DNA of 55,089 nt. It comes from Patescibacteria group bacterium UBA926 (GTDB lineage: Bacteria > Patescibacteriota > Doudnabacteria > UBA920). The translations under genes were made by a program, and so were the position numbers. The notes under the pieces were generated by a model. It was not told the DNA's origin and ran no database searches. It saw only the letters and a program-made list of their open reading frames with translations. The stretch is from positions 100,479 to 155,567 of the forward strand of contig DBDS01000004.1 of NCBI GenBank assembly GCA_002293685.1, given 5' to 3'. This document shows, in pieces, positions 2,785 through 45,425 of the stretch (the stretch's first letter is position 1; every line of letters begins with the position of its first letter).

Positions 2785-3829
2785 CTTCTTATTTAAAAGA
2801 TTTTCACAGGATTTAGGAATAGATCTTGGCACCGCTAATACCCTCGTCTATGTTAAAGGCAAGGGTATTGTTATCAATGAACCTTCTGTGGTTGCGATTA
2901 ACCAGCGTACCAAACAGATTTTGGCGATTGGAAACGAAGCGCAAAAAATGGTTGGCCGAACACCAACACATATTGTCGCTACCAGACCTTTGGTAGACGG
3001 AGTTATTTCTGATTTCGAAATTACAGAGGCAATGCTTCGTTACTTTATCGATAAAGTTCACAATCAAACTTATAGCTTCCTACGTCGACCTCGCGTCGTG
3101 ATTGGTATTCCATCCGGTGTCACCGAAGTAGAGAAGCGTGCTGTGCAAGACGCGGCGATTAACGCAGGCGCGCGCGAAGCATTCTTAATTGAAGAACCAA
3201 TGGCAGCGAGTATTGGCGCTAGGCTCCCTGTTCAAGATGCGCAAGGTTCAATGATTATTGACATCGGTGGTGGAACTACTGAAATCGCTGTGTTGTCTTT
3301 GGGAGGCGTGGTTATTGCGCGCAGTATGAGAATTGCAGGTGATACTCTTAACGAACATATCGTGCAGTACGCACGGGATAATTTTGGCATGCTAATTGGC
3401 CTTCGCACTGCAGAAGAAATTAAAATTAAAATTGGTTCCGCATATCCTTTAGCTGAACAGTTAACCGCTAGTTTACGCGGTCGCGATTTAGTTTCTGGTT
3501 TACCAAAAGAAATTATTGTTACCGATACTCATATCCGAGAAGCTTTGGCGCCAGCAGTTAAAACTATTCTTAACAGTGTGAAAGCTGTCATAGAAGAAAT
3601 TCCTCCAGAAATTATTTCGGACATTATGCATCGTGGAATTATGCTTGCTGGTGGCGGTGCTCAGCTTCGTGGGCTTGATCAGTTAATTCGCGATGAAACT
3701 AAAATGCCGGTAACAATTGCCGATGACCCTCTTACTTGCGTAGTACGAGGAACAGGAATCGTTGTTGAGGATTTAGAATCACTCCGTGACGTATTGCTTC
3801 CTACAGATTTTTCTCGAATTCCAAAGTAA
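2777..3829 (+). CDS. mreB: rod-shape actin homologue MreB
   Basis: It carries the MreB signatures DLGIDLGTANTLVY, DIGGGTTEIAV and MLAGGGAQLRGLD. It overlaps the proS stop by 8 nt. Confidence 0.92.
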   Translation: MLDFLFKRFSQDLGIDLGTANTLVYVKGKGIVINEPSVVAINQRTKQILAIGNEAQKMVGRTPTHIVATRPLVDGVISDFEITEAMLRYFIDKVHNQTYSFLRRPRVVIGIPSGVTEVEKRAVQDAAINAGAREAFLIEEPMAASIGARLPVQDAQGSMIIDIGGGTTEIAVLSLGGVVIARSMRIAGDTLNEHIVQYARDNFGMLIGLRTAEEIKIKIGSAYPLAEQLTASLRGRDLVSGLPKEIIVTDTHIREALAPAVKTILNSVKAVIEEIPPEIISDIMHRGIMLAGGGAQLRGLDQLIRDETKMPVTIADDPLTCVVRGTGIVVEDLESLRDVLLPTDFSRIPK

Positions 3830-3993
3830 TAGAAAGTAGATAGTAGGGAGTAGAAAATAGAGAATAGTAGATAGTAAATGGTAACTAGTAGCAGGTAAAG
3901 GGTAAGTCATAATAAACCTCTCAAATTTACAACCTAATTAAACATAACTGACTACTTATTACTTCCTATCTCCTACTTACTACTCACTAATCC

Positions 3994-4794
3994 ATGCGCT
4001 TTATATACACAAAAACATTCTTTATATTTGCTGCCGTTCTAGTGGGAATATTAATTGCGCTAGTCATGCAGGTGAAAGGTTGGTTTTCACCAATCGAGTA
4101 TTTGTTATTGCAATTACCAAGACCAGCTATTACTGCTGTGAATGCGGTAGTGAGACCTATATCTACTGTGACGAGTACACTAACAAGCCTTCCTGAGCTT
4201 GTCAGAGAAAACACAGCGCTTCAATCAAAGAATGCTGAACTCACTCAACAATTAGTTGAGCTTGAGCAATTGAGGGCGCAGAACGAAACTTTGCGTTCAG
4301 AATTAGAGTTCGTTGAAAGATCTCCGTTTACACTTGAGCCTTGTACAGTCCTCTCAATTGACCCTCAAAGCACAAGCGACGCAATTGTTATAAATTGTGG
4401 TGAGGATACCGGAATAAAACCAGGACAGGCTGTTATTAGTAATGGATACTTGGCTGCAAAAATTATTCATGTGGGCAGATTTAACTCAACTGCGATTCTA
4501 ATTACTAGCAGTCAATCTTCTGTAGATGCGCAATCATCTCGTTCTAATAATGAAGGTGTTGTTAAGGGTTCATTCGGCTCAGGATTAGTTCTCGATTTGG
4601 TTTCGCAATCAGCAGATATCAAACCAGGAGATTTAATTGTCACCGCAGGTATTAATCCTGAAGTGCCAAGAAATATTTTAATTGGTTCTGTTGATCAAGT
4701 TCTCTCAGGTGATAATGATTTATTTAAGCGTTTGACTTTAGTTTCACCAATCAAAACCCACCGTTTAGATTATGTCTTTGTAGTTAAACCGTAA
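3994..4794 (+). CDS. mreC: rod-shape protein MreC
   Basis: It has an N-terminal TM helix, a coiled coil (NAELTQQLVELEQLRAQNETLR) and a C-terminal beta-rich domain. It sits between mreB and mreD. Confidence 0.75.
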   Translation: MRFIYTKTFFIFAAVLVGILIALVMQVKGWFSPIEYLLLQLPRPAITAVNAVVRPISTVTSTLTSLPELVRENTALQSKNAELTQQLVELEQLRAQNETLRSELEFVERSPFTLEPCTVLSIDPQSTSDAIVINCGEDTGIKPGQAVISNGYLAAKIIHVGRFNSTAILITSSQSSVDAQSSRSNNEGVVKGSFGSGLVLDLVSQSADIKPGDLIVTAGINPEVPRNILIGSVDQVLSGDNDLFKRLTLVSPIKTHRLDYVFVVKP

Positions 4795-5336: not shown

Positions 5337-7307
5337 ATGAATCCTATTGAGAGAAACCCATTTTTTATAGAATCAGGTTCTTCGGCTAAGTCGGCGAAGC
5401 AGGGTTTGGAGTGGGAAGAAGGAGTTCAGGCAGGTTCTGGGGGTGTTGAGGGTTATGATGAAACCATTGAACGAACTCCAAACACATTCCGAAGTTTAAA
5501 AATCGGAGTTTTGTTCGTTGGTGCTGTTTTGGGACTACAGTTAGTAAACTTACAAGTTGTTCAAGGTGAAAAGATGCGAGCGCTTTCGGAAGGTAATCGC
5601 TTACGTCTTCAAACAATTTTGGCACCACGTGGATTCATTCAAGATCGTAACGGTGAAGTGTTGGCAAAAAATACTGCGAGTTTTAATTTGGCTTTGACTC
5701 CAATTGATATTCCCGATAACAACACAGCAGAAATTTTTTCAAAAGTTAGTGAGCAGTTTGGAATACCTCCTCAAGAGATTGTCGAGAAGCTTGAGAACCA
5801 TCGGGGAAGTCAGCTCGAACCGATTATTATCAAACGAAATATAACTCAGCAAGAAAGTATTGCGTTCGAAGTAAATGCACAAAGTCTACCAGGTTTTTCT
5901 TTAGTGAATATTCCGGTACGAGATTACCCGACTCCAGAAGTCTTTTCACACACTCTTGGATACACAGGTTTAATTTCCGATGCAGAATATAAGAATTTAC
6001 GAGACCAAAATTATTGGTTAAATGATTTTATAGGCAAGAGTGGTATAGAGCAATCTTACGAAAATTATTTGCGAGGAGTAAATGGAAATAAACAAGTTGA
6101 AGTAGATAGTAAGGGGAACGCAATAAAAGAAATTGGAATAGTTGAACCTGAGCCAGGAAATATTGTCGAACTTTCTATCGATGCGGGATTGCAAAGAAAG
6201 ATTTACGAAGACTTTACGAAGAGTTCTGTTGGGAATAAGGGTGCGGCTGTTGCTATGAATCCAAAGACTGGTGAGATTTTGGCTTTAGTTTCCGTTCCCG
6301 GGTTTAATAATAATTTATTTGCTCCTGGGATAAAAAACGAAGATTATCAGAAGATGCTTACCGATAAAAATCTTCCGCTGTTTAATCGAGCCATCGCTGG
6401 GATTTATCCTCCTGGTTCCGTAATTAAACCTGTTGGTGCGGCAGCTGTTCTTCAGGAAGGTGTTGTTACTAAAGATACTATCATCGTAGATAGAGGTGTG
6501 ATTGTGATCCCTAATCAGTTTAATCCTGCTATCACTTATAACTTCGTTGGTTGGAAGCGCGATGGTTTAGGACCGATGGATGTTCGAAGCGCGATTTCTG
6601 AAAGTAGCGATATTTATTTCTACATAGTGTCTGGTGGACACCCATCATCACCAATTAAAGGAATCGGAGCTGAAAAGTTGGCAGAGTATTACGAAAGATT
6701 TGGAATGGGAAAGCTGACCGGTATAGATATAGCTGGTGAGAAACCAGCCCGCATTGCCACACCCACATGGAAAGCAAACTATTACACCAACGACGCAATT
6801 ATGGCAAAGTGGTATTTGGGAGACACATACCACATTTCCATTGGACAAGGAGACATGTTAGCAACACCTCTTCAGGTTACAGCTTGGACAGCTGCAGTAG
6901 CTAATGATGGAGTCTTAAATAAACCACGATTACTAAAACAAGTTTTAGACCAAAACCGTCAGACTATATTTACACCAGAAGCCGAGGTATTTATTAATGC
7001 TGGAATCGATATGGAACACATGCGAGTTGTTCAAGCTGGCATGAGAGATAATGTAACTTCAGAAAAAGGTAGTGGGCGTTCACTTCAAAGTTTGCCAATC
7101 ACGGCAGCAGGGAAAACAGGAACTTCGCAGTTCGATGGCAGTGATCCTAAAAAGACTCACGCGTGGTACACAGCTTATGCGCCATACGAGAATCCCGAAA
7201 TTGCAATTACAGTTTTGGTCGAAGCAGGTGGTGAAGGTCACGCGGCGGCTGTACCAATAGTGAAAAATGCTTTACAATGGTGGGCAGAAAATCGAATGGG
7301 TAAATGA
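5337..7307 (+). CDS. mrdA: penicillin-binding protein 2 (elongasome transpeptidase)
   Basis: It has a PBP dimerisation domain plus a transpeptidase domain (PGSVIKP = SxxK, SESSD = SxN-like, KTGTS = KTG). It follows mreBCD. Confidence 0.85.
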   Translation: MNPIERNPFFIESGSSAKSAKQGLEWEEGVQAGSGGVEGYDETIERTPNTFRSLKIGVLFVGAVLGLQLVNLQVVQGEKMRALSEGNRLRLQTILAPRGFIQDRNGEVLAKNTASFNLALTPIDIPDNNTAEIFSKVSEQFGIPPQEIVEKLENHRGSQLEPIIIKRNITQQESIAFEVNAQSLPGFSLVNIPVRDYPTPEVFSHTLGYTGLISDAEYKNLRDQNYWLNDFIGKSGIEQSYENYLRGVNGNKQVEVDSKGNAIKEIGIVEPEPGNIVELSIDAGLQRKIYEDFTKSSVGNKGAAVAMNPKTGEILALVSVPGFNNNLFAPGIKNEDYQKMLTDKNLPLFNRAIAGIYPPGSVIKPVGAAAVLQEGVVTKDTIIVDRGVIVIPNQFNPAITYNFVGWKRDGLGPMDVRSAISESSDIYFYIVSGGHPSSPIKGIGAEKLAEYYERFGMGKLTGIDIAGEKPARIATPTWKANYYTNDAIMAKWYLGDTYHISIGQGDMLATPLQVTAWTAAVANDGVLNKPRLLKQVLDQNRQTIFTPEAEVFINAGIDMEHMRVVQAGMRDNVTSEKGSGRSLQSLPITAAGKTGTSQFDGSDPKKTHAWYTAYAPYENPEIAITVLVEAGGEGHAAAVPIVKNALQWWAENRMGK

Positions 7308-7406: not shown

Positions 7407-8240
7407 ATGTTAATAGACGGACGCGCGATTGCGCATGATTTAAATTTGCACACCAAACAGCGAATTGAGAGATTATCTTTTAGACCGCTTTTGGTTGATA
7501 TAGTCGTGGGGAATGATCCTGCGTCTTTGTCGTACGTCAAAATTAAGGAGAAGAAAGCGTTGGAGTCTGGTTTATTATTTGAACTTCATCAACTACCTTT
7601 CGAATCTACAACTGAAGAAGTAATTTCAAAAATTGAAGAATTATCTGCTCGAGAAGAACTTTGTGGTTTGATAATTCAATTACCTCTACCTTCATATCTA
7701 GATACCAAACAAATTTTGGATACTATTCCCGAAAGAGTTGATGTCGATTTATTGAACTCGAGGTCGAGCGAAAAATTTTACAGTAACGAAAGTGACTTAA
7801 TTCCACCGACCGCTGGTGCAGTAGTCCAGATTTTAGATTCATTACCTGAAGATTGGAATACCAAAAAATTTCTTGTTTTAGGCCAAGGCGAGTTAGTTGG
7901 AAAGCCTGTGGCTCATTTATTGAAGCAGCGCGGTTATGATGTAGCTGTTGCTGATAATAGCACTACTGAGGTCGACCAAATGCTTCTAGAGGCCGATTGT
8001 GTGATTTCTGGTGTGGGTAAGCCTGGTTTGGTTACTGGGGATAAACTAAAGCAAGATGTGGTCGTGATTGATGCAGGAACTTCAGAGGCAGAAGGTTCAA
8101 TTAAGGGAGATGTTGAGCAAGAAACCGTAGAACTTAAAGCTAAATACTTAACTCCAGTGCCGGGAGGGGTTGGACCTATCACTGTAGCAAAGCTTCTTGA
8201 AAATGTTCTGTTGGTCGCTGAGAGCCGTCAAAAGGGTTGA
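7407..8240 (+). CDS. folD: bifunctional methylenetetrahydrofolate dehydrogenase/cyclohydrolase
   Basis: It contains VGNDPASLSYVKIKEKK, IQLPLP, VLGQGELVGKPVA and TPVPGGVGPITVA, which are typical FolD motifs. Confidence 0.85.
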   Translation: MLIDGRAIAHDLNLHTKQRIERLSFRPLLVDIVVGNDPASLSYVKIKEKKALESGLLFELHQLPFESTTEEVISKIEELSAREELCGLIIQLPLPSYLDTKQILDTIPERVDVDLLNSRSSEKFYSNESDLIPPTAGAVVQILDSLPEDWNTKKFLVLGQGELVGKPVAHLLKQRGYDVAVADNSTTEVDQMLLEADCVISGVGKPGLVTGDKLKQDVVVIDAGTSEAEGSIKGDVEQETVELKAKYLTPVPGGVGPITVAKLLENVLLVAESRQKG

Positions 8241-9001: not shown

Positions 9002-10462
9002 ATGAACGAACGACTAGACGACATTATTGGCCACAGAAAGGCTAAACTCGAAAATTTACGATCCGCAGGGTACGAACCATTTCCATCAGAAACCGCTCGC
9101 ACACACTCAAACCACGAAGCTCTAGAGCAGTTTGAGTCTTTGGAAGGTACAAGCATAATCTTGGCAGGCCGAATCCGTAGTATGCGTGGCATGGGCAAAC
9201 TTTTGTTTTTACATATCGATGATGGCACAGGCCGTATTCAGGTCTTGCTTAAAAGCGACGACATCGGCGGCGAGCGCTTTGCGTTTTTCGTCGACAATTT
9301 TGACCTTGGCGATTTCATAGAAGCGACAGGAAAATTATTCATCACTAAGACTGGTGAAAAAACTTTGCAAGCACATGATTATAAAATCTTGGCGAAGAGT
9401 TTGCGCCCATTACCGAGCGATCATTTTGGTTTACAAGACACCGAACTTAAACTTCGCAAGCGTTACTTAGATATTTTGTTGGACAGCGAAACTAAAGAAT
9501 TGTTTGTGAAGAAAAATAAGTTTTGGCAGAGCATGCGTAAATTCCTCAGCGACCGCGGATTTTTGGAAATGGATATGCCAATTTTGGAATCTGTTCCAGG
9601 TGGTGCTGAAGCCGAACCGTTCATTACTCACCATAATGCACTAGACCGTGATTTCTTCTTAAGAATTTCTCTAGAACTTCCATTAAAGAAAATGTTGGTA
9701 GCAGGTTATGAAAAAGTTTTCGAGATAGGCCGCATTTTTCGTAACGAAGGAATATCCACAACTCACTTACAAGACTACACTCAAATGGAATTCTACTGGG
9801 CCTATGGAGATTTCGAAAAACTTCAGAAGATGCTTCAGGAAATGTATCAATTTGTAATCCAAGAAACTTTCGGTACATTGCAAATTACTTCCGGCGGCGT
9901 GACTTGCGACTGGAGCGGTGATTGGGAAAAAGTTGACTATATTGAACTATTCAAAGAACATACTGGCTTAGATTTGGAATCTTGCAGTGACGAAGATTTG
10001 AAAGCATACGCAAGCGAACAGCACATTAAGTTTGAAGACTTCGCGCAACGCGGTCGTTTAATCGATTTAATTTTCAAAAAGATTCGCGTTAATATTAAAA
10101 CTGATAAACCAGTATTTCTAATTAATCAACCGGTAGAGTTAGAACCTCTTGCCAAGCGCGACCCAAACAATCCAAAAGTTGTTCAGAGATTGCAAATCGT
10201 TGCTTACGGAACTGAACTTGGAAAAGGTTTTGGAGAACTCAACGACCCTCTCGATCAACGTCAGCGTTTCGAAGATCAAATGAAGTTACGCGCAGCAGGT
10301 GATAAGGAAGCGCAAATGATCGACGAAGATTATTTAGAAGCAATGGAATATGGTATGCCGCCAGCTGCAGGCTTCGGACTTTCAGAAAGAACTTTCAGTG
10401 TATTGGCAGATAAATCCATTCGCGAGACAGTGATTTTCCCGCCAATGAAAGAAAAGGAGTAG
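9002..10462 (+). CDS. lysS: lysyl-tRNA synthetase, class II
   Basis: It has an N-terminal OB fold and class II motifs ([28 protein letters not shown]). Confidence 0.9.
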
Positions 10463-22382: not shown

Positions 22383-22506
22383 GTTAAGAAAATTTAAACC
22401 CCCGCGAAGGCGGGGATCCACAAAATGAATACCGTAAGGGATTTTGTTTTTTTACCCCGCCTGTGTTTTTTAAACCCCCGCTAACGCGGGAGGTTTTGTA
22501 TAAGTA

Positions 22507-22782: not shown

Positions 22783-22806
22783 CAAAACCCCCGCGTCAGC
22801 GGGGGT
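22783..22806 (-). terminator. terminator after rmlA
   Basis: The CCCCCGC/GCGGGGG stem is followed by UUUU on the minus strand. Confidence 0.7.
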
Positions 22807-22816
22807 TAAATTAAAA

Positions 22817-40333: not shown

Positions 40334-42088
40334 ATGAACACTCAAGAATTACAACAACTCATCATGGAACTCGGCTTAGATCCTAATGATCAACAGCTTC
40401 AAAAATTGCTTATGCAAATTTTGGAAAGCAAGCCGCAAGTGGAAATTAGTCAGGGTTTCAAAGAACAACTCCGAACGCAGTTGGTTCAGCAAACAACTGT
40501 TGCAAAAGCAGGAGCAACAAATTCTCTTTCTCGTCATGCTGAGCAAACAACAAACTCTTCTTCTCGTCATGCTGAGCAAACAACAAACTCTTCTTTTCGT
40601 CATGCTGAGCAAACAACAAACTCTTCTTCTCGTCATGCTGAGCGAAGCGAAGCATCTCCAAAAAATAATTTATTAACAAATCTTATGCAAAAAATAATGA
40701 TCCCAGCTCTTGTGGCGGTAGTCGTCCTAGTAGCTGGTGGTGCGTGGTACGCAAATCAACAAAACCCAGGTTTAATTGATTTCGGCGGCGGCGACGAAAT
40801 CTTGTCTGGTAAATATTCCGTGGACCAACTTGACGCTGGTTCTTTCGGAGATTTGAGCAAAGTCGCTATCGTTTCAGGTGGTCCTGCGACTGGAATGGGA
40901 AGTGGCGGCGGAACTAACTTAACAAGTGACGCTCAAAAAGCAACCGAATCCGAACGGATGGCAATCGCTCCAGTTGGTTCAGGCGGCGGTTCAGATGCGA
41001 GCATCTTACCTTACCCTGATGGATATAATTTTATGTACGAAGGTGAAGAAATATCTGGTCTTGCCGAAACACAAGATGTGTTGAAGCGTCAAAAACCAGA
41101 GCAAAGCGAAAGCGTGGTTAGTCGAATTATTCGAATTTTCAGTTTTGGTCTAGTTGATTTAACAAAGTTCACTAATACCCGTATTCAAAGTTTTGCTTTC
41201 ATGGAAGATAAAGACTTAGGATTAAGTGTTAACATTGATTTACATCAGGGTAATATTGGAATTTATCAGAACTGGGAGAAGTGGCCACAACCTCAATATG
41301 GATGTGAAGGTAGCTACTGTGGTGCGTTACCACGTATTACTGAATCAGATTTACCAAGTGACGAAGAAGCTTTACGAATCGCAAATCAGTTCGTTAGTGA
41401 TTACGGAATTTCGTTGGAAGGTTACGGCGCTCCGATGGTTTATGAACCACACAACTGGCGTATCGCTTACGAGCGAGCAGAAGACAAAGCAGGATTTTAT
41501 ATTCCAGAAACAGTGAATGTAATTTACCCAATTGAAATTGAAGGTCAGAGAGTATTTGATGAAAACGGCCACCCAACTGGAATGAATATCAATATTGACG
41601 CTCGTACACGTCGTGTTTCTACTATGTACGGACTAGAAACCAAGCAGTTCCAACGTTCGGCGTATCAAGGTGAAACAGATGCGAACCGAATTTTAGGAAT
41701 TGCTAATCGCGGCGGTTACCGTAATCAGTTATGGGAAGGAACTAATCGTCAAACATTGATTTTGGAAACCCCGACTGTACAGTTGGTCCGCATTTGGTAC
41801 TCTAACGATCCAACTCGCATGGGTGAAGAATTATACGTACCGGCTCTTGTTTTCCCAATTCGCAATGTTGAGCAAACTAACTACTGGCGTAAGAGTGTAG
41901 TGGTTCCTTTGGTGAAAGAATTGTTAGACAATGAAAACCAAGGCGGTGGACCGGTGTATCCGATGCCAATGCCTGTGGACGATGGGCCGATGCCAGTTGA
42001 ACCAGATGGCGGAATTGGTGACACACCAGACGCACCTCAATCTACCGAGCCAAGCGCTCCGATAACTTTACCTGCTCCTAGAGGTTAA
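40334..42088 (+). CDS. putative anti-sigma / membrane protein with a large extracytoplasmic domain and an internal 33-nt tandem repeat
   Basis: It lies 4 nt downstream of the ECF sigma gene. It has a single TM helix (IMIPALVAVVVLVAGGAWY) and about 440 aa outside the membrane. No zf-HC2 motif was seen. Confidence 0.5.
   Translation: MNTQELQQLIMELGLDPNDQQLQKLLMQILESKPQVEISQGFKEQLRTQLVQQTTVAKAGATNSLSRHAEQTTNSSSRHAEQTTNSSFRHAEQTTNSSSRHAERSEASPKNNLLTNLMQKIMIPALVAVVVLVAGGAWYANQQNPGLIDFGGGDEILSGKYSVDQLDAGSFGDLSKVAIVSGGPATGMGSGGGTNLTSDAQKATESERMAIAPVGSGGGSDASILPYPDGYNFMYEGEEISGLAETQDVLKRQKPEQSESVVSRIIRIFSFGLVDLTKFTNTRIQSFAFMEDKDLGLSVNIDLHQGNIGIYQNWEKWPQPQYGCEGSYCGALPRITESDLPSDEEALRIANQFVSDYGISLEGYGAPMVYEPHNWRIAYERAEDKAGFYIPETVNVIYPIEIEGQRVFDENGHPTGMNINIDARTRRVSTMYGLETKQFQRSAYQGETDANRILGIANRGGYRNQLWEGTNRQTLILETPTVQLVRIWYSNDPTRMGEELYVPALVFPIRNVEQTNYWRKSVVVPLVKELLDNENQGGGPVYPMPMPVDDGPMPVEPDGGIGDTPDAPQSTEPSAPITLPAPRG
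40533..40658 (+). repeat. 33-nt tandem repeat (3 head-only units plus 1 complete GTCATGCTGAGCGAAGCGAAGCATCTC element) inside a CDS
   Basis: The units start at 40533, 40566, 40599 and 40632. They encode SRHAEQTTNSS three times and then SRHAERSEASP. Confidence 0.9.
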
Positions 42089-42094
42089 GAATAA

Positions 42095-42409
42095 GTATCC
42101 CCGGGCGAGCGCAGCGAGACCCGGGGTCTACAATGTCATCCTGAGTCCGCCATGGGCGGACGAAGGATCTCTCTCTGTCATCCTGAGGCGCTATTAAACT
42201 GTCATCCTGAGTCCGCCATGGGCGGACGAAGGATCTCTCATGTCATTCCGGCCTTGAGCCGGAATCTCCTGAATGCCATCACGGCATTACATATGTCATC
42301 CCCGCGAAGGCGGGGAATCCAAAAAATACATCAGTAAAACCCGCTCTGCAACAGAGCGGGTTTTTGTTTTCCATGTCACCCCGGAAGCCCGAAGGGCTAT
42401 CCGGGGTCC
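42095..42409 (+). repeat. array of seven same-orientation hairpin elements, including two identical 37-mers
   Basis: The copies start at 42095, 42135, 42177 (head only), 42201, 42242, 42295 and 42375. A canonical terminator at 42336-42366 lies within the array. Confidence 0.9.
42336..42366 (+). terminator. rho-independent terminator inside the element array
   Basis: The sequence is AAAACCCGCTCTG-CAAC-AGAGCGGGTTTTT. Confidence 0.8.
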
Positions 42410-42469
42410 ATTTTTCCAAACCACTACATTAATCTCAGATATCTAGTCCCTCTGTGGTAAAATTAAACC

Positions 42470-43554: not shown

Positions 43555-44052
43555 ATGTATACTAAGAACCCCAAAATAGGTAGAATTAGATATATGTGGA
43601 AGAAAAGAAGACTATTATACTTACTCTCGAAACTAGAGAATAGGATTATTGAAGACGCTCATTCATTATTTCTGGGGAATGTAGCATATGAAAAAGGTGT
43701 GGATTCTGTAAGACTTATGTTGTTTTATATTCAGTATAATAAATGGTATTGGTTATTGCTTTTTAGTGTAGGTGTTGTGAGGGAGGGAGGATTAACCGTG
43801 AGCTATCGAGAGTATGAAAGGTCTAGATTAAAATACAAAAGATTGATAAAGGAATTAGACTCAGAATATATTGAGATATCTAATATAGGGGCGAGCGAAT
43901 ATGTAAGGATTTCTCCTATAGGTGAGGAATATATAAAGCCCTTATATTTCTGGACTGCTGTATTAGAGAAGTTTAAAATATGGCAAATTGTACTATTCTC
44001 AATACCAATAGGTCTTGTTATTAGGGAGATATACGAATACATTAGTAAATAG
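43555..44052 (+). CDS. hypothetical membrane protein (accessory island)
   Basis: It is a 165-aa ORF with a weak RBS (AGGGTGG) and two hydrophobic segments. It has no recognisable domain. Confidence 0.4.
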   Translation: MYTKNPKIGRIRYMWKKRRLLYLLSKLENRIIEDAHSLFLGNVAYEKGVDSVRLMLFYIQYNKWYWLLLFSVGVVREGGLTVSYREYERSRLKYKRLIKELDSEYIEISNIGASEYVRISPIGEEYIKPLYFWTAVLEKFKIWQIVLFSIPIGLVIREIYEYISK

Positions 44053-44160
44053 GTGTGGATAATTGATATGTCAAAATGTATCTAATTGATATATAATAGA
44101 TATATCATAGAGTTCTTTCCCAATGAAAGAAGAAATAGAAACAAATGTAGATATGAATAA

Positions 44161-44195
44161 ATAAAAGAAAAACCCGCTTGTTTATAACAAACAGG
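44161..44195 (-). terminator. minus-strand terminator after the tRNA-like gene
   Basis: The stem 44173-44180/44188-44195 has two C-A mismatches on the plus strand that are G-U on the minus strand. A U-rich tract follows on the minus strand. Confidence 0.6.
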
Positions 44196-44273
44196 TTGAC
44201 TTTTATTTTTGTATGGTTATATAATAAGCTTCTTGCTTTTATTGCCTAGACGCTAGGTAAGTTGATTGTTAAT

Positions 44274-44366
44274 TGGTACTGATATCCAGATTCGAACTGG
44301 AATCTCTTCCTACGACGGAATACCACTTTACTAGAGTGTTGTTTTATCCAATTAAACTATATCAGC
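44274..44366 (-). tRNA. type II (long variable arm) tRNA-like gene with encoded CCA; formal anticodon AGU; identity uncertain
   Basis: The reverse complement folds as GCTGATA/TATCAGT acceptor (G1-U72), GTTT-AATTGGATA-AAAC D arm and ACACT-CTAGTAA-AGTGG anticodon arm. It continues with a 21-nt variable arm, a TCCAG-TTCGAAT-CTGGA T arm, A73 and CCA. Confidence 0.7.
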
Positions 44367-44535
44367 TGAACAACTTACCTAGCGTCTGAGCAACAAATGC
44401 TCACAGTATTTCTTTTTCTTTTATCTCTAAGTTTTCTCAGTGGCTACAAGGGGATAACTGATTAAAAGTGGTACAACATTTCTTATTGTGTTTTAAACAA
44501 TAACCTGAAATGAGGTTAGAATCGGAAGCGTCTTA

Positions 44536-44676
44536 CTAACGCTTCTTTTTTTTGTTCGTGTAAGCTGGGAATTTCCACCATCCACCGTTTTTGCGATATA
44601 CGGTTTTGCCGTTACGCACTACGAATGGACAGTATATAAACCCGTCTCTAAAGAAGCAATGATTTGGATTTCCCAT
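44536..44676 (-). CDS. possible small basic protein (46 aa, MGNPNHCFFRDGFIYCPFVVRNGKTVYRKNGGWWKFPAYTNKKKKR)
   Basis: It was hand-translated and is below the ORF-track cutoff. AAGGGAG lies 6 nt upstream of the ATG. It lies inside a 17-bp inverted-repeat bracket. Confidence 0.3.
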   Translation of the reverse strand: MGNPNHCFFRDGFIYCPFVVRNGKTVYRKNGGWWKFPAYTNKKKKR

Positions 44677-44760
44677 ATCATACTCCCTTCTGCCTGTCGT
44701 TACCGGTTAGGCATCCCTTGCAACCGTGTTGTAGCCACTGAGAAAGCTCAAAGATATTAC

Positions 44761-44870
44761 AAAACCGTTCTAAAGCCAACGCTTTGGGAATTAATAAAGG
44801 CAAAACTTAATCCCCAAGTTAGGGCTTGAGGGATAAAAATATCCCCAAAGCGCCAGCTTCAAAACGGTTT
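44761..44870 (-). ncRNA. long RNA hairpin (27-bp outer helix) in the leader of a minus-strand transcription unit
   Basis: The arms are 44761-44788 and 44844-44870. All five mismatches are A-C or C-A on the plus strand and G-U on the minus strand. Confidence 0.55.
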
Positions 44871-44941
44871 CACTCCTGGTTAGTGTATTGGCTATTCGAC
44901 CCTAATCGAATTTAATTTATAAAGGTACTACAACTAGAATA

Positions 44942-44950
44942 ATTATAACA
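44942..44950 (-). promoter_or_regulatory. extended -10 (TGTTATAAT on the minus strand) for the structured RNA / small ORF / tRNA-like unit
   Basis: This was read directly. It lies just downstream of the minus-strand terminator at 45041-45068. Confidence 0.4.
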
Positions 44951-45040
44951 TGACACTATCTCAGTCCTGCAAATAGAAAAAAATAAAATAACTTGGCTCA
45001 GTTATGGCACTTTTTACTTTCTTGGAAAATATATCCACAA

Positions 45041-45068
45041 AATTGAAAAGCCCTCGTCCTAACGAGGG
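45041..45068 (-). terminator. minus-strand terminator after the transposase remnant
   Basis: The CCCTCGT/ACGAGGG stem is followed by CUUUUCAAUU on the minus strand. Confidence 0.55.
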
Positions 45069-45163
45069 TAGTCTTACTTATAATTATTGCAATTAAATTA
45101 ACAAATTTGAACCAACCACTCCAATTCCCGAAAGAGAAGACTTCTTCGACCTCATCCACGAAG

Positions 45164-45425
45164 CTATTGGCGAACCATACGGTTTAAAAGCACCGAGAAA
45201 ATTGGAAAAGGAGAGCGAGAGTGAGTTAGACGAAAGCTAAACTCGTTTAGATAGCCTTGTAGATACTTAGGCGAAACCCTGTGATAAGTGCCATCTATTG
45301 ATTGCTTAATTTGAGAGAAGAACCCCTCAACTGAGTTAGTATGAACTACACCAAAAGCGTATTCTTTCTTGCTTTAAAGGTATGGTTGGACCGAGTGTTG
45401 TTGATAACTCTTATTGAACGAATGT
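45164..45425 (-). pseudogene. IS1595-family (ISXO2-like) transposase remnant, C-terminal part only
   Basis: The start-less open frame 45164-45373 reads SKKEYAFGVVHTNSVEGFFSQIKQSIDGTYHRVSPKYLQGYLNEFSFRLTHSRSPFPIFSVLLNRMVRQ*. This matches the HTNxxEGFWSxxKR...YHxVSxKxLxxYLxEFxFRxNxR signature. The upstream part is out of frame or absent. Confidence 0.6.

Follow-up and report, generated by a model that had tools for sequence, protein, structure and literature searches.

A structured RNA, small-protein and tRNA module carried by an IS1595-family insertion sequence of Patescibacteria

What is encoded in the anonymous 0.8-kb gap at 44161-44950 of contig DBDS01000004.1? Coordinates are positions in the window, the whole 55,089-nt stretch of that contig that was analysed, unless a locus handle precedes them. 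The original prediction, made from the letters alone, read the gap on the minus strand as a compact unit of promoter, long hairpin, bracketed small open reading frame (ORF), tRNA-like gene and terminator. We compared the window with the gene neighbourhoods of relatives of the small protein, which gave nine distinct loci, window included. The analysis shows that 44161-44950 is a minus-strand transcription unit that contains, in this order, a promoter, a short hairpin (H0), a long hairpin (H1), a helix (H2) around a small gene, a tRNA clamped by another helix (H3), and a terminator. It also shows that this unit, hereinafter the module, is cargo of a Patescibacteria insertion sequence of the IS1595 family.

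A minus-strand transcription unit with long helices

The module starts with an extended −10 promoter element, TGTTATAAT, which is read directly in the sequence at 44942-44950 of the minus strand, exactly where it had been placed before. Near-consensus sense promoters are found 206-266 nt upstream of the ORF start in most of the other loci, and at ~350 nt in L134. H0 (44894-44911) follows and is present in both the minimum-free-energy and the centroid structures; a short leading hairpin of this kind also occurs in L131 and L141. The 110-nt hairpin proposed at 44870-44761 corresponds to H1 (44762-44870), which is recovered by inverted-repeat search and by folding and consists of a 30-bp stem with a small apical hairpin. 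H2 closes the ORF segment, with its 5' arm at 44729-44764 and its 3' arm at 44414-44449, and is likewise supported by inverted repeat and fold. The core of H2 is a perfect 17-mer, TTGTAGCCACTGAGAAA, at 44729-44745 (+) and 44433-44449 (−), which extends to 36 nt at 83%. The original prediction gave the sequence and the first arm of this repeat correctly and put the second arm at 44443-44459, 10 nt off; all the elements that it listed are found in the sequence, and this coordinate is the sole error.

The second perfect 17-bp clamp, proposed around the tRNA gene, is also present (44371-44387 / 44248-44264) and forms the core of H3, which extends to 30 nt at 87%. The inverted repeat defines a 5' arm at 44371-44400 and a 3' arm at 44235-44264, the latter separated from the CCA of the tRNA by ATTAACAAT; the counterpart at the same place in L141 is CTTAACAAT. 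The sense transcript ends at a predicted intrinsic terminator (44161-44197, minus strand), with the hairpin at 44197-44171 followed by a T run, in agreement with the minus-specific terminator of the original prediction. H0, H1, H2 and H3 all lie on the minus strand.

Folding of the sense (minus) strand gives −263 kcal/mol, with z = −13 against shuffles, and folding of the antisense (plus) strand gives −225 kcal/mol, with z = −6.5, which supports a single minus-strand unit. A hand count across the three long helices gives 10 G-U pairs in the sense strand versus 2 in the antisense strand. In the H1 stem, read by hand, the minus strand pairs without a mismatch, six of the pairs being G-U; on the plus strand those positions would be C-A mismatches. 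The complementarity of H1 at the DNA level is 80%. The excess of G-U pairs, together with the better stability of the sense strand, indicates that the pairing acts in RNA, not in DNA. An invertible DNA element was rejected because of the G-U asymmetry and because no recombinase gene is nearby.

Within the 55 kb each 17-mer matches only its own partner, and ~0.2 matches would be expected even with three mismatches allowed. The whole window has six inverted repeats of 20 nt or longer, and two of them fall inside the module. The unique 17-mer pairs, the density of inverted repeats and the fold z-scores confirm that the observation exceeds chance. Helices of the RNase III type, that is, about 20 bp or more formed from the flanks, are found throughout: 30 bp in H1, 17 perfect pairs within 36 nt in H2, and 17 perfect pairs within 30 nt in H3.

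Among the non-coding parts of the nine loci, no sequence similarity is detectable. The long 5' hairpin H1 is found in seven of them (window, L130, L131, L134, L135, L136 and L141), and its sequences are unrelated. A closing helix around the ORF is found in six or seven of the nine; contiguous helices were used as the evidence for H2, instead of RNAduplex z-scores, which are noisy with long inputs. All four loci that bear a tRNA have a leader-trailer clamp around it. The clamp measures 7 bp in L130 and ~30 bp in L134; that of the window has 17-30 bp, and that of L141 has 19 bp, two of which are G-U pairs. H2 and H3 of L141 both measure ~19-27 bp. Fold z-scores of the eight relatives range from −3.9 to −12.7 against shuffles, and in each of the nine loci the sense strand is the one that folds better. 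What is conserved is the architecture, without any resemblance in sequence. Copies of any one locus do not differ from one another, so close relatives offer no covariation.

Comparison with Rfam covariance models over 43900-45300 finds only the tRNA at or near threshold, and every other match has E of at least 0.29 and a score far below its gathering score. The RNA belongs to none of the described RNA families. Identities as tmRNA, Y RNA, group I or II intron, GOLLD or ROOL have no support from Rfam or ARAGORN, YrlA and ribozyme models are likewise unmatched, and a retron was rejected because there is no reverse transcriptase.

A small-protein family and its IS1595 carrier

The small gene (44536-44676, minus strand), defined by homologues and a profile, encodes a 46-residue protein with a Lys-rich tail. 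As had been proposed, the ORF codes for a basic protein and is preceded by a Shine-Dalgarno sequence, AAGGGAG (44684-44690), 7 nt upstream of the ATG; in the predicted fold this sequence is paired with the first ORF codons. A word-indexed protein search with the 46-residue sequence returned only the self-match, and the family emerged only by an exhaustive phmmer search against 1.84 billion representatives, which gave 24 relatives at E ≤ 1e-3 (best 54% identity, E = 1e-10). The relatives are 44-149 residues long and have in common a core of ~40 residues, with the motif Q.CF..DG[FY].[FY]CN[FY][VI].R.G..[IV]...K.G.W[LF][KR]FP (alignment A1), followed by the lysine-rich tail. A profile search gave 13 members, one of which is from a Patescibacteria metagenome-assembled genome (MAG). 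The original prediction listed the ORF as protein-coding and named a homologue search as the check; the 24 relatives and their conserved core bear this out. Judged from this alignment, the 46-codon ORF is a real conserved gene of an unnamed small-protein family, and its product is clearly under selection.

The protein has no credible match in Pfam, PHROGs, PADLOC, NCBIfam or the sequences of the PDB, and IMG/VR scans with the protein or with a sub-alignment found no relatives. It is basic and aromatic and has no hydrophobic stretch. The AlphaFold2 model is a five-strand beta meander with a predicted local distance difference test (pLDDT) score of 75, and a Foldseek search with this model gave no credible match. 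The ORF is almost never called by gene finders, and the definition of the module provides a handle for annotators.

Directly upstream of the module, and in the same orientation, the window contains the remnant of an IS1595-family DDE transposase, an arrangement also seen in L130 and L141. The remnant comprises the last 66 codons (45167-45364, minus strand), with the stop codon at 45164-45166 and an in-frame stop further upstream. It matches PF12762 (DDE_Tnp_IS1595) with E = 6e-14 over profile positions 112-152 of 153, and it is 48% identical to residues 223-287 of the L130 transposase. A terminator scan places a terminator-like hairpin (45051-45068, minus strand) between the remnant and the module promoter.

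Full-length PF12762 domains are found in L130, L134 and L141. In L130, terminal repeats enclose the transposase and, downstream of it in the same orientation, the small ORF and a tRNA-Ser(UGA). The ends, CACAGTTATCCCTTGACAACATAA ... TTATGTTATGTAGGGATAAGCCCG, are at 2841-2859 / 4640-4658 and are flanked by an 8-bp direct repeat, GACAAAAT. L134 is a phage-like contig with terminase, DUF5906 and HNH genes. It has the terminal repeats of L130 at 3559-3577 / 5524-5542 together with an 8-bp duplication, AAGTAATC, and the repeats enclose the module, a tRNA-Leu(GAG) and then a transposase in the opposite orientation. The order in L141 is transposase, module, clamped tRNA. An 8-bp target duplication is a hallmark of the IS1595 family, and the target duplications of L130 and L134 place the tRNA inside the element. 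The module is conserved as a unit elsewhere and lies within two complete IS1595 elements. The earlier suggestion that it is cargo of a mobile element holds in this form, but the module is not cargo of the restriction-modification island as such. Restriction-modification genes adjoin it in only two of the nine loci.

In the window, neither a terminal repeat of the L130/L134 type (≤5 mismatches) near the module nor a flanking inverted repeat was found. With only 66 transposase codons left and no terminal repeat, the window represents a decayed element with intact cargo; this copy is a remnant, not an intact element. In five further loci (L131, L135, L136, L140 and L142) the module is present without a transposase in view. 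A viral contig, L143, carries at 1-1340 an IS1595 element that has the same terminal repeats as L130 and L134, TTATCCCTTGACAACATAA, and lacks the module. Its cargo consists of two 72-residue ORFs, one of which is Lar-like (restriction alleviation; E = 2.6e-4, below the Pfam cut-off). Because the same repeats enclose different cargo, the module is one of several alternative passengers.

Many members of the family are on contigs of ~1 kb (930, 1004, 1071, 1163 and 1199 bp). The 930-bp contig, L001, is exactly window 44140-45069, and its edge adjoins the hairpin at 45051-45068. Contigs of this size are the expected assembly product of a repeated unit, an observation that is only suggestive.

The host is an ultra-small bacterium of the Patescibacteria, and its Band_7 protein is 90% identical to that of a Doudnabacteria MAG. 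The window locus recurs with 100% identity in ~19 contigs, which come from several studies. In the closest syntenic relative, L022, the interval from the rhodanese to the Band_7 gene is occupied by other genes and lacks a tRNA, and the idea of a syntenic host tRNA was rejected on this ground. The module or its ORF is present in none of 80 related loci, which indicates an acquired, lineage-specific insert in a variable spot; the spot also holds a HaeIII-like restriction-modification pair. Searches of IMG/VR with the two 17-mers gave only single chance matches, and a blastn search of phage and plasmid records yielded no meaningful match to the module.

The tRNA cargo and a predicted antisense RNA

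The gene inside H3 is a 93-nt tRNA with anticodon AGU (44274-44366, minus strand), assigned as Thr(AGU) by ARAGORN and as RF00005 by Rfam, and it is the only tRNA in the 55 kb. It had been described as a stem-clamped tRNA-like gene. The clamp is real, but the gene scores as a full tRNA (52.3 bits versus a gathering score of 29), not merely as tRNA-like. It keeps U8, A14, G18G19, U33, the T-loop TTCGAAT, A73 and an encoded CCA. It departs from a typical tRNA-Thr in three features: G1-U72, A34 and a hairpin-bearing variable arm of 21 nt. A tRNA-Thr has the class I shape with a 4-5-nt variable loop, together with G1-C72, C2-G71, G35 and U36. The window tRNA has G35, U36 and C2-G71, and lacks the short variable loop and G1-C72. 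Its anticodon arm resembles that of tRNA-Thr(CGU) of related genomes, and AGU matches the commonest Thr codon of the host, ACT (42%). In the Rfam alignment a 7/5 acceptor/T-stem fits; inspection by eye also allows an 8/4 arrangement, with GCTGATAT/ATATCAGT and a T stem of 4 bp.

The other tRNAs of the module are the tRNA-Ser(UGA) of L130, the tRNA-Leu(GAG) of L134, which has an odd T loop, and that of L141 (1352-1438). The last has a tRNA-Leu body with anticodon UGA, which corresponds to UCA, a codon for Ser; in the D arm and acceptor it is nearly the same as tRNA-Leu of Patescibacteria, and both A73 and CCA are present. Were the leucyl-tRNA synthetase (LeuRS) to charge it, it would misread the UCA codon. 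All four module tRNAs have a long variable-arm hairpin. The amino acid charged to any of the four is not deducible from sequence, and the Thr label of the window tRNA refers to its anticodon only. As the tRNA is missing from five loci, it is an optional part of the module. Exact-pattern scans for the anticodon loop plus T arm found nothing in viral contigs or GTDB genomes, and the same pattern gave 14 matches, all unrelated tRNAs, in the metagenome collection, which does not contain the window's own contigs.

Among the long tRNAs compared, the closest to the window tRNA is a 91-nt tRNA-Asn(GUU) in L125 (51-141). It is located in a cluster of seven tRNA genes and has an extra variable-arm hairpin, TATTCCCCGAAAGGGGTATG, that resembles the arm of the window tRNA.

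Nested tRNA genes were observed in several related genomes. In Moraniibacteriota, a tRNA-Thr(CGU) beside a Band_7 gene sits within an outer, decayed tRNA-Thr-like sequence, and a tRNA-Gln(UUG) of another Patescibacteria genome is nested likewise. Such loci are found in L056 (~9520-9790), L051 (~9650-9880), L030 (~7810-8050), L029 (~9640-9880), L055 (~9560-9960), L026 (~3870-4130) and L061 (~965-1190). In these loci the inner tRNA, together with a complementary leader and trailer, is inserted in the D arm or the anticodon loop of the outer one. The acceptor, D and T parts of the outer tRNAs are recognisable, with extra GC-rich hairpins (e.g. CCTGCCTGCCGGCAGGCAGG) in other loops, and ARAGORN does not call the outer tRNAs. 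The flank duplexes have energies of −30 to −41 kcal/mol, versus a median of −14 across 52 tRNAs. The nested loci suggest that helix-clamped tRNA cassettes may be mobile.

The hairpin over the stop codon of the ORF is present at 44524-44546 as originally proposed, but it reads as a terminator of the opposite strand, paired with a conserved putative antisense promoter that had gone unseen. Specifically, a terminator scan identifies the hairpin and an adjoining T8 run (44524-44554, plus strand) as an intrinsic terminator of the antisense strand, and a promoter scan predicts TTGACT-18-TATAAT (11/12) at 44196-44225 of the plus strand, pointing at the tRNA and the ORF. In all nine loci an A-rich tract of Lys codons is followed by a hairpin at or over the stop codon; a strict script recognised the antisense terminator in four loci, and the remaining loci were judged by eye. 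Near-consensus antisense promoters are found in seven of the nine loci, downstream of the ORF and, where there is a tRNA clamp, beyond it. The antisense promoter of L130 is TTGACA-17-TATAAT, a 12/12 match. Combined by Fisher's method for all nine loci, with locally shuffled sequence as the reference, the promoter matches give p = 8e-5. These signals predict a convergent antisense RNA of ~75-140 nt, or of 230-330 nt where the tRNA is covered. In the window the predicted RNA would be ~320 nt long and complementary to the tRNA, to the 3' arm of H2 and to the region of the ORF stop.

Possible roles of the module

We favour, with a probability of roughly 0.55, the reading that the locus is a self-contained, antisense-controlled small-protein module with a layout like that of type I toxin-antitoxin systems and a hitch-hiking tRNA, and the data support the earlier notion of a self-contained RNA/protein system. 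The sense RNA would be held closed and poorly translated: H2 joins its 5' and 3' parts, and in the predicted fold the ribosome-binding site is base-paired. The antisense RNA would pair with the 3' part of the sense RNA. Over the H2 3' arm it would have the same sequence as the H2 5' arm, and it would thereby compete with the closing helix. A double-stranded-RNA nuclease such as RNase III would cut long perfect duplexes within and between the RNAs; that such a nuclease processes the transcript at the long helices is a reasonable inference. Closure, antisense pairing and cleavage together would set the output of small protein and release the pre-tRNA. An addiction-type role would explain why the module outlasts the transposase, here and in the loci without one. 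A self-maintaining role is best supported by the intact state of the module where the transposase is truncated or absent.

Several points weigh against this reading. The small protein is soluble-looking, basic and beta-rich, unlike the hydrophobic type I toxins, and a closed, poorly translated mRNA together with a strongly conserved protein fold would fit non-toxin roles as well. Both promoters, both terminators and every cleavage step are predictions, and the antisense promoters of L135 and L141 are below threshold. The membership of the window copy in an insertion sequence is argued by analogy and from the adjacent transposase fragment, as no repeat or duplication was found there. The comparison covers only nine loci, none of them mutually close enough for a clean test of compensatory changes or of the ratio of nonsynonymous to synonymous substitutions (dN/dS).

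The protein could instead help or restrain the IS1595 transposase as a transposition accessory or copy-number regulator, with the antisense RNA acting in trans to give multicopy inhibition like that of IS10 RNA-OUT. The position of the module within terminal repeats beside the transposase in L130 and L134 fits this role, as does the predicted antisense RNA, and a basic, beta-rich, Lys-tailed protein such as the modelled one would suit nucleic-acid binding. We nevertheless consider such a role unlikely: the module is intact although the transposase is truncated in the window and not in view in the five loci named above, it lies on either side and in either orientation relative to the transposase (L130 versus L134), and the L143 element combines the same repeats with an entirely different cargo. 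Slightly less probable still is cargo for host range, translation or anti-defence, spread by phages and insertion sequences, in which the tRNA supplies or replaces a host tRNA (for example, the target of an anticodon nuclease) and the protein inhibits host defence. The phage-like genes of L134 (terminase, DUF5906 and HNH), the Lar-like ORF (below the Pfam cut-off) between the same repeats on the viral contig L143, the match of AGU to the commonest host Thr codon, ACT (42%), and the occurrence of a tRNA with an extra variable-arm hairpin in the dense seven-tRNA cluster of L125 are consistent with this. However, the ORF and the RNA structure remain in the five of nine loci from which the tRNA is missing, the small protein has no relative in IMG/VR and no PADLOC or PHROGs match, and UCA, the codon of the L130 tRNA, is rare in the L130 host (8%).

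More speculative, and doubtful, are readings in which RNA is at the centre: an accessory of the DDE transposon, with a particle of RNA and basic protein acting in spread or target choice; clamped tRNAs whose body and anticodon disagree and which alter host decoding, as exemplified by the Leu-type body with a Ser anticodon in L141 and the long-arm tRNA with a Thr anticodon in the window; or mobile clamped-tRNA cassettes. About as doubtful, if not a little more so, is the related possibility that the product is the ~0.7-kb structured RNA itself, with its tRNA-shaped domain, serving as a scaffold or guide for the transposase or the small protein, the ORF being secondary. It would account for the extreme fold z-scores in all loci and for structure that is kept without sequence conservation. 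In L134, moreover, the clamp continues the acceptor stem almost coaxially, which argues against simple maturation by RNase P. Yet the protein is clearly under selection, there is no conserved RNA motif for protein binding or target pairing, no RNA cofactor is known for the DDE enzymes of the IS1595 family, and the L143 element has the same terminal repeats without the RNA. Coincidence, that is, an ordinary host tRNA operon beside a chance landing of an insertion sequence, or else a DNA-level inverted-repeat device such as an invertible promoter or a cruciform, is the least probable account and very improbable. Although tRNA genes are common insertion hot spots, two segments are bracketed by inverted repeats, and Moraniibacteriota relatives have a tRNA-Thr near the Band_7 gene, in L130 and L134 the target duplications show the tRNA to be part of the element, a tRNA is missing from this site in the closest syntenic relative, the G-U pairs and the stability of the sense strand over the antisense strand favour RNA pairing, and no recombinase gene is nearby.

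The antisense-controlled module that we favour appears to work like known things, namely passengers of insertion sequences, type I antisense control, RNase III stalks and mobile tRNAs; the combination appears to be new. IS1595 elements with passenger genes are known, in ISfinder subgroups such as ISPna2+ and ISNwi1+. The elements described here have in common with them an ISXO2-like DDE transposase (PF12762), terminal repeats, an 8-bp duplication, and genes located between the transposase and one end. They differ in that the passenger is a structured sense/antisense RNA unit with an unnamed protein of 40-residue core and often a tRNA, and in that the window copy is a remnant without ends. In full-text literature searches, neither the whole combination nor any IS1595 element with a tRNA or an RNA module as cargo came to light.

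Type I toxin-antitoxin systems with convergent or 3'-overlapping antisense RNAs include txpA/RatA, bsrG/SR4 and par of pAD1, and hok-type mRNAs fold with their 5' and 3' ends paired; the toxin is usually a small hydrophobic membrane peptide. The likeness of the module to these systems, at the level of sequence, comprises a small ORF, a long structured 5' leader, paired mRNA ends, a paired ribosome-binding site, a predicted cis-antisense RNA that would end within the 3' end of the ORF, mobile carriage, and persistence after decay of the carrier. The module differs in that its protein is not a hydrophobic membrane peptide and in that a tRNA is embedded in the overlap region in four of the nine loci. 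In the RNase III stalks of rRNA operons and phage T7 early transcripts, leader/trailer helices bracket precursor segments. Similarly, 17-30-bp leader-trailer helices surround each functional segment of one precursor in the module, but here what they enclose is an mRNA and one tRNA, their only departures from perfect pairing are G-U pairs, and the cleavage is predicted.

Phages, plasmids and integrative elements carry tRNA genes, and SerRS and LeuRS do not read the anticodon. In the allo-tRNAs reportedly described by Mukai et al. in 2017, and in ProX-type mistranslating tRNAs, the body and the anticodon are said to disagree. The module shares the tRNA cargo and, in the Leu body with UGA of L141 and the Thr anticodon with a long variable arm in the window, a similar disagreement. 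Allo-tRNAs have an 8/4 or 9/3 acceptor/T-stem; 7/5 fits the window tRNA, with 8/4 as the alternative by eye. The module tRNAs differ from other mobile tRNAs in being locked between long leader-trailer helices. GOLLD, ROOL, the omega RNA of TnpB and the bridge RNA of IS110 resemble the module RNA as long structured RNAs of mobile elements that adjoin or contain a tRNA. Unlike them, the module RNA consists mostly of long plain helices and encodes a conserved protein, its partner is a DDE transposase and not TnpB/IscB or an IS110 recombinase, and it has no Rfam match to them even at E ≤ 10.

An anonymous gap of 0.8 kb thus becomes a defined unit that recurs among Patescibacteria, a group little studied so far, and on at least one phage-like contig. 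On a DDE insertion sequence, the unit combines a tRNA with the gene of a new small-protein family, in a transcript whose fold is as tight as that of a viral RNA and which has a predicted antisense partner. Should it truly be an addiction or regulatory module, it would resemble type I systems, but with a product that is not a membrane peptide. Should the tRNAs prove functional, then in organisms with minimal genomes tRNA genes would be carried by insertion sequences as well as by phages and plasmids.

Some further features were observed in and around the module copies. DnaA-box-like 9-mers (TTATCCACA / TGTGGATAA) are located near several of them (window 44047-44055; L130 ~2665-2673), including downstream of the module in L136 and L142, and the module of L131 adjoins rpmH-rnpA, near the usual position of the replication origin; the recurrence of these boxes may be due to chance. 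In L135, ~170 nt between the module terminator and an N6/N4 methyltransferase gene (4520-4690) are strongly paired. Elsewhere in the window, an ORF of 584 codons (40334-42088) contains tandem copies of a unit of ~11 residues (RHAEQTTNSS.). The spacer after it (42150-42450) translates to repeated CHPE.../GGRRIS strings, as it does in L022, and looks like a dispersed GC-rich palindromic repeat of these genomes. Finally, two GC-rich, terminator-like palindromes at 22470-22496 and 22784-22810 are mutually inverted and flank a segment of 287 nt.

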